The notes below the pieces were generated by a model. The model was not told the DNA's origin. It saw only the letters and a program-made list of their open reading frames with translations, and ran no database searches. Position numbers and translations under genes: made by a program. 64,000 bases of DNA, taken from Promethearchaeota archaeon. Lineage in GTDB: Archaea; Asgardarchaeota; Lokiarchaeia; Sigyniarchaeales; SOKP01. The stretch covers positions 1 to 64,000 of the forward strand of contig JAEOTP010000069.1 of assembly GCA_016839765.1 (NCBI GenBank), in the 5' to 3' direction. Within the stretch, counting starts at the first letter, position 1, and every line of letters begins with the position of its first letter. Shown one piece after another: positions 12,490 to 16,698 of this stretch.

Positions 12490-12607
12490 ATTTGAGTTTT
12501 AGTAATCTTATATTTGATTCTCTAATTGTAGGAAAACCAAAAATTATTAATTTTATGCTACATTTAAAATTTCAATTATAGTTCATCTATTTAACTGGTG
12601 TATAGTC

Positions 12608-13201
12608 ATTTTCAAACTTTTTCAAATTCAAGGGAAAATTGAGATTCCACCGTTTTTATTTGACCAACCAAAGGATGTTTCTGCCCGTATAATTCTATCT
12701 GAGGATTATGAGGGGATTATTACTAGAGATTATGGATTTATTATTGCAATAGTGGATGTTGTTGACGTGGGCCCTGGAATAATAATTCCTGGGAATGCAA
12801 ACACATTTCATGAGGTTGAATTTACAATCCTTTCTTTTAAACCGGTGATATCTGAAGTAGTGGAAGGAGAGGTAGTAGAAATTGTTGATTTTGGGTCTTT
12901 TATAAGACTAGGACCACTTGATGGATTGGTTCATGTTTCACAAATATGCGATGATTATATTTCATATGAACAAGTAGGCAATCGATTTATAGGGAAAGAA
13001 ACAGGAAAAATACTTGAAGTAAATGATATTGTGCGTGCTAAAATCATAGCAGTATCATTAGGTACTGGAAGGAGTGGAAAATTGGGTTTAACTATGAGAC
13101 AAAAATTTTTGGGAAAAGAAGATTGGATCGAACAAGATATTGAGGATGAGTATAGTGAAAAAGGAGAAGAAACAGCTAATAAAAAAGAGAATAAAAAATA
13201 A
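12608..13201 (+). CDS. rpoE1: DNA-directed RNA polymerase subunit Rpo7 (E'), ATT start
   Basis: Frame extends upstream of the ORF-track GTG to (I)FKLFQIQGKIEIPP, the conserved Rpo7 N-terminus; S1 domain EGEVVEIVDFGSFIRLGPLDGLVHVSQI; GGTG 7 nt upstream of ATT. Confidence 0.92.
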   Translation: MFKLFQIQGKIEIPPFLFDQPKDVSARIILSEDYEGIITRDYGFIIAIVDVVDVGPGIIIPGNANTFHEVEFTILSFKPVISEVVEGEVVEIVDFGSFIRLGPLDGLVHVSQICDDYISYEQVGNRFIGKETGKILEVNDIVRAKIIAVSLGTGRSGKLGLTMRQKFLGKEDWIEQDIEDEYSEKGEETANKKENKK

Positions 13202-13222
13202 AGATAATGAGGTGAATTACAA

Positions 13223-13414
13223 ATTTCAAAAGACCGAGCTTGTAAAAACTGTCATTTAATAACTAAAAATGAACAAATTTGCCCTAAATGTAAAACCCAT
13301 AGTCTAAGTGATGATTTTACGGGAGAAGTTATAATAATAAAACCTCAAGAGTCAAAATTTGCAGAATATCTGAAAATTCATTTTCCTGGAAAATATGCTT
13401 TAAGAGTCCGTTAA
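13223..13414 (+). CDS. spt4: transcription elongation factor Spt4 (RpoE2), ATT start
   Basis: (I)SKDRACKNCHLI...CPKC...SDDFTG...PGKYALRVR; GAGGTGA SD; missed by ORF track. Confidence 0.92.
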   Translation: MSKDRACKNCHLITKNEQICPKCKTHSLSDDFTGEVIIIKPQESKFAEYLKIHFPGKYALRVR

Positions 13415-14010: not shown

Positions 14011-14300
14011 TTCCTTATCTTAAATTTTATTTTTTAAATTAATAGTTAGTACTAATAAAATTAACCATAAGAATATACTGCTTATGAAAGTAATAGAAAA
14101 AACGCCTACTTAAACATTTTTCAGCCAGAAAAAGTATCCATAATAAAATCTTTATTTTCCAGTTAAAGACCCTAATTTGTGCTATAGTCTATTCAAAAAA
14201 ACCAAAATTTTAATTCTTATAGTGCTTTGATCTTAAATAACTTAGAATAATCTTTAAATTAACTGATTGATTCAGAATTATACTACTTAAAAGGTTCATT

Positions 14301-14654
14301 ATGCCGCTAAATATTGAAATTTTAGAAGAGAAGAAAAATCCGCTGATAAACAGGATTGAATTAAGATTTAAAATCGATCATTTTGCTGAAGGAACTCCGA
14401 ATAGATTAGAAATAAAAAAGAAAATTGCTAAGATGAGCAAAGCAAATGAAAAATTAACCATAATCAGTGATATTAAGACACATTTTGGTTCCGCTCATGA
14501 TGTAGGTACTGCTCATATATATGAAAACGCAAATGCATTGCAATATTTTGAACCCTTTCATATCCAAGCAAGGAATCTAGAAAAAGAAAAAAGAACGGAA
14601 ATCTATAAATTGAAAAAGAGGAAAGAACCTTATAAACATCTATTTGATTATTAA
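14301..14654 (+). CDS. rps24e: ribosomal protein eS24
   Basis: NPLINRIE, GTPNRLE, THFG, AHIYE motifs and operon context. Confidence 0.92.
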   Translation: MPLNIEILEEKKNPLINRIELRFKIDHFAEGTPNRLEIKKKIAKMSKANEKLTIISDIKTHFGSAHDVGTAHIYENANALQYFEPFHIQARNLEKEKRTEIYKLKKRKEPYKHLFDY

Positions 14655-14684: not shown

Positions 14685-14934
14685 ATGACGAATGTATCAA
14701 ATTTATATAAAATTGAAGGAAATAAATTAGTTAGAACCCATAGAACATGTCCTAAGTGTGGACCTGCCTATTTTCTCGCAGACCACTATGATAGATGGTG
14801 AGATTAAACTCATTATCCATAAAAGATCGTCTTGTGGGAAATGTGGCTACACAATATTTAAAAGAAAGGGAACTAAAGGAGCAAAAAGAGTAGCAACGAA
14901 AAGAACTCCTAGAAGACGTATGAAATCAAAGTAA
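14685..14934 (+). CDS. rps27ae: ribosomal protein eS31 (S27ae), two exons 14685-14792 and 14824-14934; 72 aa after splicing
   Basis: Exon 1 [36 protein letters not shown] plus exon 2 [16 protein letters not shown]...; canonical position between rps24e and kae1. Confidence 0.9.
14793..14823 (+). other. putative 31-nt bulge-helix-bulge (BHB) intron in rps27ae mRNA
   Basis: 4-bp helix TATG/CATA, 3-nt bulges ATA and AAA, 9-bp intron stem GATGGTGAG/CTCATTATC; canonical cuts restore the frame. Confidence 0.8.
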
Positions 14935-14998: not shown

Positions 14999-16009
14999 AT
15001 GAAATCTAATAAAATAGCCCTTGGTATAGAATCAACTGCGCATACATGGGGTGTTGGGCTTGTCGATTTTACAGGGAAGGTTTTAAGTTTAGTAAATGAT
15101 GTATTTGTACCTGAAAAAGGAGGGCTTCATCCTGCTTTGGTTAGGGAGCAACATTTGAATAATTTCACAAGAGTTATTAATGAGGCTCTTACTCAAGCTA
15201 AATGTTCAATTAAAGATATTAATTTGTTAGCTTTCAGTCAAAGTCCTGGTTTAGGGCCTGTATTGAAAATAGGAGCACTTGTAGCACGTATGCTGGGTCA
15301 ACTTTTAAAAATCCCTATAATTGGAGTAAACCATTGTATTGCCCATATAGAAATAGGAAGATTAATGTGTAATATTGATGATCCCCTCTCTCTCTATGTG
15401 TCTGGTGGTAATACTATTGTGAGTGCCTATGAATCTGGAAGATATCAAATTTTTGGAGAGACATTAGACATTCCTATAGGTAATTTACTTGATTCATTTG
15501 CTAGAGAAGCAGAAATTCCTCATCCTGGGGGTCCCAAAATAGAAAATTTGGCTAAAAAATCAAAAAAATATCTCACTTTACCTTATGTGGTTAAAGGAAT
15601 GGATCTATCGTTTTCAGGACTTTTTACAGCAGCTAAAAGATTATTAGAATCTGAAAAATATGAAAAAGAATATAATTTATGTGATATTGCTTTTTCTCTT
15701 CAAGAGACTGCATTTGCAATGCTTACTGAAGTCACAGAAAGAGCCCTTGCTCACACAGAAAAGACTGAAGTTTTACTAACAGGGGGAGTAGCGGCAAATA
15801 AAAGATTACAACAAATGATTAATTCAATTAGCGATGAGCATAATGCAAAGTTCGAAGTTGTACCCCTAAAATATGCAGGGGATAATGGTGCAATGATTGC
15901 TTGGACAGGGATATTAAGGTATAAGAGTAAAGGAGAATTTAACCTTACAGAAACAATTATAAATCCAAAAGAAAGGATGGATAATATTTCTATTCCGTGG
16001 AGAAGCTAG
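14999..16009 (+). CDS. kae1: KEOPS N6-threonylcarbamoyltransferase Kae1
   Basis: GIESTAHT, VNHCIAHIE, SGGNT, GETLDI, GDNGAMIA. Confidence 0.96.
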   Translation: MKSNKIALGIESTAHTWGVGLVDFTGKVLSLVNDVFVPEKGGLHPALVREQHLNNFTRVINEALTQAKCSIKDINLLAFSQSPGLGPVLKIGALVARMLGQLLKIPIIGVNHCIAHIEIGRLMCNIDDPLSLYVSGGNTIVSAYESGRYQIFGETLDIPIGNLLDSFAREAEIPHPGGPKIENLAKKSKKYLTLPYVVKGMDLSFSGLFTAAKRLLESEKYEKEYNLCDIAFSLQETAFAMLTEVTERALAHTEKTEVLLTGGVAANKRLQQMINSISDEHNAKFEVVPLKYAGDNGAMIAWTGILRYKSKGEFNLTETIINPKERMDNISIPWRS

Positions 16010-16023
16010 GTGATAAATTAGGA

Positions 16024-16698
16024 ATGACTAGAAATATCACTAAAGAGAAATTGCTTCATAAAGGTGCAGAAGCAAGTTTATTTTATGGTCACTGGTTTGG
16101 TAAAGAAGTTATCTTCAAACATAGGATTATTAAGGATTATAGAATTGAACAACTTGATAGAAAAATTCGAACAGTAAGAACATTAAATGAAGCTCGAGCC
16201 CTTATAAAGGTAAAAGAATATAGAATTAACACACCACAAGTATATGAGATTGATACAGAAAGCTCCACAATAATTATGAAATATATCTCTGGTTCTAAGC
16301 TAAAAAATTTAATTAAAACTCTAAATATCTCTAAAAAAAAAGAGATTTTCACTAATCTGGGTCGAATTATCGCAATTTTACATATTAATGGACATATTCA
16401 TGGCGATATTACCACCAGTAATATAATATTAACATCAAGCGAAGATATTTTCCTTATTGATTTTGGACTTCATGATTATTCGGATTCTATCGAAGATAAA
16501 AGTGTTGATATCCATCTTTTAAAAAGAGTATTAATTTCTTCGCATGGAGATGATTTTAAGTTATGTTTTAATGCTTTTCTTGAGGGTTATAAATCAGAGT
16601 ATAGAGAAAGAGGAAATAATGCTTATAATGATATTATTAAAAATATCTCTATTATAGAAACTAGAGGGCGATATGTAAAAAAAGAAAATCGATTATGA
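16024..16698 (+). CDS. bud32: KEOPS kinase Bud32
   Basis: KGAEA, HGDITTSN, IDFGL, RGRY; adjacent to kae1. Confidence 0.95.
   Translation: MTRNITKEKLLHKGAEASLFYGHWFGKEVIFKHRIIKDYRIEQLDRKIRTVRTLNEARALIKVKEYRINTPQVYEIDTESSTIIMKYISGSKLKNLIKTLNISKKKEIFTNLGRIIAILHINGHIHGDITTSNIILTSSEDIFLIDFGLHDYSDSIEDKSVDIHLLKRVLISSHGDDFKLCFNAFLEGYKSEYRERGNNAYNDIIKNISIIETRGRYVKKENRL

Follow-up and report, generated by a model that had tools for sequence, protein, structure and literature searches.

The gene for the ribosomal protein eS31 (rps27ae) in a contig of a Lokiarchaeia archaeon raises the question of how a complete protein can be made from a reading frame that is broken in its middle. In the window, the 64,000-nt stretch of contig JAEOTP010000069.1 (assembly GCA_016839765.1) analysed here, the eS31 frame opens at 14685 and ends after only 38 codons with the TGA at 14799-14801, while the second zinc knuckle of the protein is encoded in a different frame. 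A 31-nt insert at 14793-14823 sits between the two knuckles and brings both the stop and the frameshift. We argue that this insert is very probably a bulge-helix-bulge (BHB) intron in the eS31 mRNA that would be cut by the tRNA-splicing endonuclease EndA and joined by the ligase RtcB.

An interrupted eS31 gene

The locus comprises the following features, all on the plus strand:

14301-14654 (+): rps24e (eS24), upstream gene of a probable operon; PF01282, E 2.9e-26
14685-14792 (+): rps27ae (eS31) exon 1, 36 codons, first CxxC knuckle; PF01599 positions 1-36 of 44, NF001669
14793-14823 (+): predicted BHB-type intron, 31 nt; scarless absence in close relatives, counterparts at the same site in 12 further GTDB genomes and in 5 additional metagenome variants
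14824-14934 (+): rps27ae exon 2, 36 codons and stop, second CxxC knuckle, basic tail; pN/pS about 0.10 among carriers
14999-16009 (+): kae1 (KEOPS), downstream gene; TIGR03722, E 5.8e-138
15997-16698 (+): bud32-like kinase, downstream gene; kinase/RIO1 Pfam hits, position after kae1

Excision of 14793-14823 in silico yields an eS31 of 72 amino acids with the junction H-Y-D-R-S-S-C and a knuckle-to-knuckle distance of 54 nt, as in intact relatives, and a single residue separates this product from P0115, the uninterrupted eS31 of a relative that lacks the intron. An earlier note on this DNA had claimed such an intact product with normal CxxC spacing, together with the coordinates of the insert, its BHB elements and a setting between rps24e and kae1; all of these held on recheck, the setting by profile matches that place eS31 between rps24e and kae1-bud32. 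A second, intact rps27ae, which the note had seen as a point to check, was not found in the 3.32-Mb, 96%-complete assembly of the genome, where the 31-nt insert sequence itself occurs once. The insert had no match in Rfam at gathering level and, at only 31 nt, contains neither a ribozyme core nor an intron-encoded protein of the group I, group II or homing-endonuclease type. A single-sequence AlphaFold model of an intact eS31 relative was of low confidence (pLDDT 60).

At NCBI the eS31 genes of carriers stand as S27ae proteins of 38 amino acids (L042, protein P0163), and the present analysis corrects this annotation of insert carriers as genomes with a truncated S27ae. Two further observations concern the surroundings of the locus. 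The divergent intergenic region upstream of rps24e (window positions 14035-14135) shows indels of 99, 32 and 26 nt among close relatives, none with a BHB shape. Further upstream, rpo7 and spt4 (12600-12620 and 13205-13230, plus strand) have no ATG, GTG or TTG at the expected start; instead, an ATT follows a GGTG or GAGGTG motif at this position, as it does in L083, and in L091 the start of spt4 is an ATG.

Predicted fold and cleavage sites

The elements of the predicted fold are as follows:

14787-14790 (+): central 4-bp helix, exon strand; 4/4 paired in 17/17 copies, one pair altered on both sides in G134 and m107
14791-14793 (+): 5' bulge of 3 nt, predicted cut 14792/14793; boundary unambiguous in G075 and G077
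14794-14817 (+): intron hairpin, 9-bp stem of 14794-14802 with 14809-14817 and a 6-nt loop, containing the premature TGA 14799-14801; pair probability 1.00, compensatory changes in 8/9 pairs
14818-14821 (+): central helix, intron strand; pairs with 14787-14790
14822-14824 (+): 3' bulge AAA of 3 nt, predicted cut 14823/14824; invariant in the 13/13 genomes found without using the motif
14772-14841 (+): predicted exon-exon outer helix of 14772-14783 with 14829-14841, a loose closure of the motif; register differs among relatives

The stem of the intron hairpin includes two G-U pairs. On the exon side, beyond one conserved pair (C14786-G14825), there is an internal loop and, further out, a helix that varies among relatives; the 3' bulge is closed by a single C/U-G pair, both bases of which are also set by codons. 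As predicted from sequence, the motif would be relaxed and not of the strict hBHBh' type, and it fits the HBh' form. Only 4 of 2,000,000 shuffles of the insert gave a 4-bp helix and a 9/9 stem in the same register, and the folding z-score of the region is -3.2 to -4.0. Note that in this genome the BHB fold lies above the minimum-energy fold, by 1.1 kcal/mol without the closing pair and by 1.8 kcal/mol with it; the probability of the central helix is about 0.09 here (79-nt folding window) and 0.03-0.93 across copies, and in about half of these a fold of similar energy competes with the BHB.

The intron boundaries in this genome are not unique, as a shift of 4 nt to the right leaves the product unchanged. 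Both ends are fixed in G075 and G077, where they lie behind the second bulge base on either side, the position given by the BHB cleavage rule (PMC2738675). The EndA cut rule invoked in the earlier note thus fits, and excision at these boundaries restores the host sequence exactly.

In the mechanism that we propose, the 9-bp intron hairpin of the pre-mRNA would stack on a 4-bp helix of exon and intron whose two strands each bear a 3-nt bulge, an (alpha-beta)2 endonuclease would cut at 14792/14793 and 14823/14824, after the second bulge base, and RtcB would ligate the exons for translation of a normal 72-residue eS31. Translation of the unspliced message would stop after 38 codons, and its product would lack the second zinc knuckle. 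The genome encodes two EndA paralogs and one intact RtcB. EndA alpha is closest to the alpha subunit of Aeropyrum pernix (E 3e-37), keeps the catalytic-site His, which is Ala in the second structure aligned, and contains an L1/CSL-like loop; the second paralog, beta, is devoid of the catalytic-site His. An (alpha-beta)2 EndA with an L1 loop has been reported from Asgard archaea, and the loop has been tied to the cleavage of relaxed motifs (PMC5829648). The host is hence predicted to possess a splicing endonuclease that accepts relaxed motifs as well as an RNA ligase, and many of its tRNA genes carry introns.

Same-site inserts and covariation in relatives

A family-wide profile search retrieved eS31 from 129 of 135 genomes. 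The gene is interrupted in 13 of the 129, distributed over three genera (5 genomes in that of the host and 8 in the two others), and in all 13 an insert of 30 or 31 nt follows the same Asp codon. Note that the RNA motif played no part in picking up these carriers, which were identified by the protein profile. When GTDB was searched with a pattern, the 12 other genomes came up again along with one chance hit, and in metagenomes five further versions of the insert with 28-30 nt were found; chance matches to the pattern came without the stem. Other genomes of the family that were examined have an exact empty site with no scar. In a 251-genome sample of the phylum, eS31 is present in 243 genomes, and no insert was found there outside the family; this rests on the match scores and on an inspection of the five weakest matches beyond the family, all of them free of internal stops and inserts.

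The earlier note had suggested that an alignment of relatives might show inserts at the same codon with covarying BHB stems, and this is what the 13 genomes and the metagenome copies revealed. Across 17 distinct copies, 98.7% of the BHB pair cells are paired, compared with 85.4 +/- 1.4% after shuffling and 35-45% when the partners are slid; for the 9-bp intron stem the figure is 98%. Compensatory changes on both sides occur in 9 of the 14 BHB pairs, one of them an exon-intron pair, although the copies are related and these counts are not independent. In G134 and m107 a changed exon Tyr codon is matched by a changed partner in the intron. RNAalifold recovers the central helix and the stem unaided. 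Among the copies G-U pairs swap with A-U and G-C pairs, an interchange that fits pairing in RNA rather than in DNA. Each of the 17 inserts introduces an in-frame stop within three codons, including those of 30 nt that keep the frame.

Two side observations were made on individual entries. The eS31 of L082 (ENA contig ERZ23495091, 577 bp) is 97-98% identical to the window and its upstream rps24e only about 70%, which may reflect recombination or a chimeric contig. L101 / G115 bears Candidatus Odinarchaeota in its title, yet is grouped in this Lokiarchaeia family.

Further inserts in the host genome

When about 550 kb was compared with two relatives without recourse to the motif, the host genome (G000) turned out to contain three additional coding inserts with BHB geometry, none of them present in its relative G022:

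C57:103567-103599 (+): 33 nt, BHB geometry; interrupts the codon for the Lys in the P-loop of EF-1alpha and brings in stops
C57:13917-13946 (-): 30 nt, 4-bp helix, imperfect stem, two stops; lies immediately ahead of the DAGG motif in a small GTPase
C46:3602-3631 (-): 30 nt, BHB type, contains a stop; the gene that it interrupts has 577 codons

In each case the insert adds a stop and its excision restores a long frame. A scan of the genome with the motif alone and a coding filter gave 16 hits versus 13-18 for decoy geometries. The earlier note had proposed a scan of Asgard genomes for other BHB-split genes; in this genome the alignment yielded the three inserts, and the motif-only scan produced no excess over decoys.

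Gain, loss and possible spread

On a tree of Kae1, eS24 and eS31 with 72 rows the intron needs at least 11 changes; this is a quick tree in which carriers are over-sampled and nine short rows are omitted. Carriers have intron-less neighbours at 95-97% locus identity. Since the stems share sequence beyond what the exon dictates, a single origin is likely. Among carriers the intron arms are more alike than the synonymous sites of their hosts: the introns of G094 and G138 match completely, with 60% identity between the two at synonymous sites, and the host genome shares 24 of 25 arm bases with G134, a member of a different genus, at 53% synonymous identity. Arm identity correlates with host similarity (rho 0.34, with pairs that are not independent), and no co-conversion of the intron flanks was seen. 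Slowly changing stems with precise and repeated loss are compatible with these data, and so is lateral spread.

Most likely the intron is a tolerated passenger of single origin, not a control switch, and would have been gained or lost repeatedly within one Lokiarchaeia family. A bolder extension, which we put forward tentatively and consider possible rather than probable, is that Lokiarchaeia routinely splice many coding messages, those of ribosomal-protein and translation-factor genes included, via the tRNA-splicing enzymes, and that 30-nt introns with no mobility gene move between lineages into empty alleles without co-conversion of the flanks. If this were true, the identical introns of G094 and G138, the arms shared by G000 and G134 and the repeated presence and absence in sister lineages would be traces of such spread.

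We also searched for the spliced form itself. The exact spliced junction had 0 matches in JGI contigs. Intact proteins with the sequence of the spliced product, or one near to it, all derive from intron-less alleles, at most about 97% identical to any carrier, and no intron-less contig more than 97% identical to a carrier was found. For the intact protein that is identical to the spliced product of G019, the contigs represent intron-less alleles with SNPs of their own, one of them a DNA assembly. As the matches are intron-less alleles, several of them from DNA assemblies, none is counted as cDNA evidence; transcription, cleavage, ligation and neutrality of the eS31 intron are inferred. Ribosomal-protein operons are usually strongly expressed, and with its short junction eS31 is therefore a convenient target for proof at the RNA level.

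Alternative explanations

All data used here are metagenome assemblies, and an error of assembly or sequencing, a concern already voiced in the earlier note, might have produced the insert. We regard its probability as negligible, as a separate Logan assembly (contig SRR14699982) agrees with the window at every position of a 4772-bp stretch (100% identity) that contains the insert, two further NCBI assemblies hold the identical 31 nt, and the insert exists in 17 differing sequence versions with covariation. If the insert is real, eS31 might be dispensable and the carriers might hold pseudogenes or truncated genes into which a hairpin was inserted; the protein is not universal in archaea, with no match in Haloferax among our controls, and public assemblies do call the 38-residue piece as a gene. 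This is highly improbable in view of the state of the exons, which the earlier note had described as otherwise undamaged: no further lesion was found in any of the 13 carriers, and exon 2 is intact in all of them, with both cysteines kept and a pN/pS of about 0.10, a value that for distant carriers includes the history before any recent gain. The pairing of the insert is kept while its sequence changes, and the phylum at large retains eS31. Two other ways of reading the frame were tried and rejected. Stop-codon reassignment fails because TAA, TAG and TGA all occur in the inserts and some of these shift the frame, and a two-piece protein that starts from the ATG at 14788 would require this ATG to share the frame of exon 2, as it does in the 31-nt and 28-nt copies but not in those of 30 nt. 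Translational bypass of the T4 gene 60 or byp type, in which the ribosome would stall at the stop within the hairpin and jump between a take-off and a matching landing codon on an uncut RNA, fares slightly better and is still very unlikely. The early stop of every insert lies inside the hairpin, 15 of 17 inserts start with an AGR codon, as does exon 2, and in 7 copies the stop directly follows AGR. In G075 and G077, however, the stop follows the Asp codon, for which there is no matching landing codon, and in 7 more copies, the host genome included, the codon before the stop is unmatched at the landing site, so that the model fails in 9 of 17 copies; it also leaves the conserved exon-intron helix, the compensatory change within it and the invariant 3-nt bulges unexplained.

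The BHB intron is thus the preferred explanation, and the claim of the earlier note that it must be removed for full-length eS31 to be made is strongly supported by the comparative evidence together with the genes for EndA alpha, EndA beta and RtcB. As a special case of this explanation, the intron might in addition be a regulated switch that ties eS31, and with it the downstream kae1-bud32, to EndA/RtcB capacity. The early stop kept in every copy, the competing fold of similar energy in about half of them and the high conservation of the intron arms relative to host synonymous sites would all suit such a function. The stops, however, are equally expected as a fail-safe against read-through products, and the intron is absent from about 90% of the family, even from loci 95-97% identical to carriers, and scattered on the tree. 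Its patchy presence and the similar inserts in unrelated genes argue against a special regulatory role at eS31. We therefore consider a switch improbable, and the coupling of ribosome biogenesis to tRNA-processing capacity proposed in the earlier note finds no support in a distribution that requires this many changes on the tree.

Comparison with known systems

In the literature covered here, cbf5 is the only gene for which splicing within the coding sequence of an archaeon has been confirmed, and introns of Asgard archaea are described for tRNAs only. Work by Tocchini-Valentini in PNAS in 2011 reportedly may predict further introns in archaeal coding genes. A study from 2020 named cbf5 as the only earlier mRNA case and added one intron in a 5' UTR (PMC7714728), and introns in other coding genes have been predicted, but not confirmed (PMC2738675). 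The reports on Asgard tRNA introns treat tRNA genes only (PMC11291895; bioRxiv 10.64898/2026.10.13.758758), and our literature search, which covers few subscription journals, found no published Asgard mRNA intron.

The closest parallel is the cbf5 intron of Crenarchaeota (Watanabe 2002; Yoshinari 2006; Yokobori 2009, PMC2738675), likewise a short, BHB-like element in a conserved codon of a coding sequence that is cut after the second bulge base by a hetero-oligomeric EndA and is present in some lineages only. The eS31 insert would work in the same way and, the dominance of the fold aside, all features of a relaxed BHB that could be tested at the level of sequence are found in it. It differs in belonging to another phylum and to a ribosomal-protein gene, and its splicing is predicted from sequence, whereas that of cbf5 was confirmed by cDNA. 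The cbf5 intron goes back to the ancestor of two orders and was lost a few times, while the eS31 intron differs between loci that are 95-97% identical and, in contrast to the cbf5 case, is accompanied by at least three further inserts of its kind in the host genome. The BHB introns of archaeal tRNA genes, among them the numerous non-canonical introns of Asgard archaea (PMC11291895; bioRxiv 10.64898/2026.10.13.758758), share with the eS31 insert the motif, the enzymes and the repeated gains, but here the substrate would be an mRNA and removal would restore a reading frame. In Haloferax volcanii, the 5' UTR of HVO_1309 contains a BHB intron (PMC7714728) that likewise resides in an mRNA substrate of the splicing endonuclease; in contrast to eS31 it lies outside the coding sequence, was shown in vivo and in vitro and depends on a different type of EndA.

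If removal of the eS31 intron is required, mRNA splicing would be routine in the archaeal lineage closest to eukaryotes, and in a single-copy, highly conserved ribosomal-protein gene, and the sister lineages with and without the intron would make its gain and loss testable. In the splicing of HAC1 and XBP1, which is stress-regulated, IRE1 cuts the mRNA at stem-loops and a ligase joins it. A role of RtcB in splicing of this type is noted in PMC8718801. As in our reading of eS31, cutting by an endonuclease and joining by a ligase restore or change the reading frame of an mRNA, and the parallel drawn in the earlier note stands only for the ligation chemistry of RtcB. It does not extend to regulation, for which nothing is in evidence at eS31, nor to the cut, which is made by IRE1 and not by a tRNA endonuclease at a BHB. 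The enzymes that would act on eS31 have homologues that serve in eukaryotic tRNA splicing and in the ligation of XBP1.
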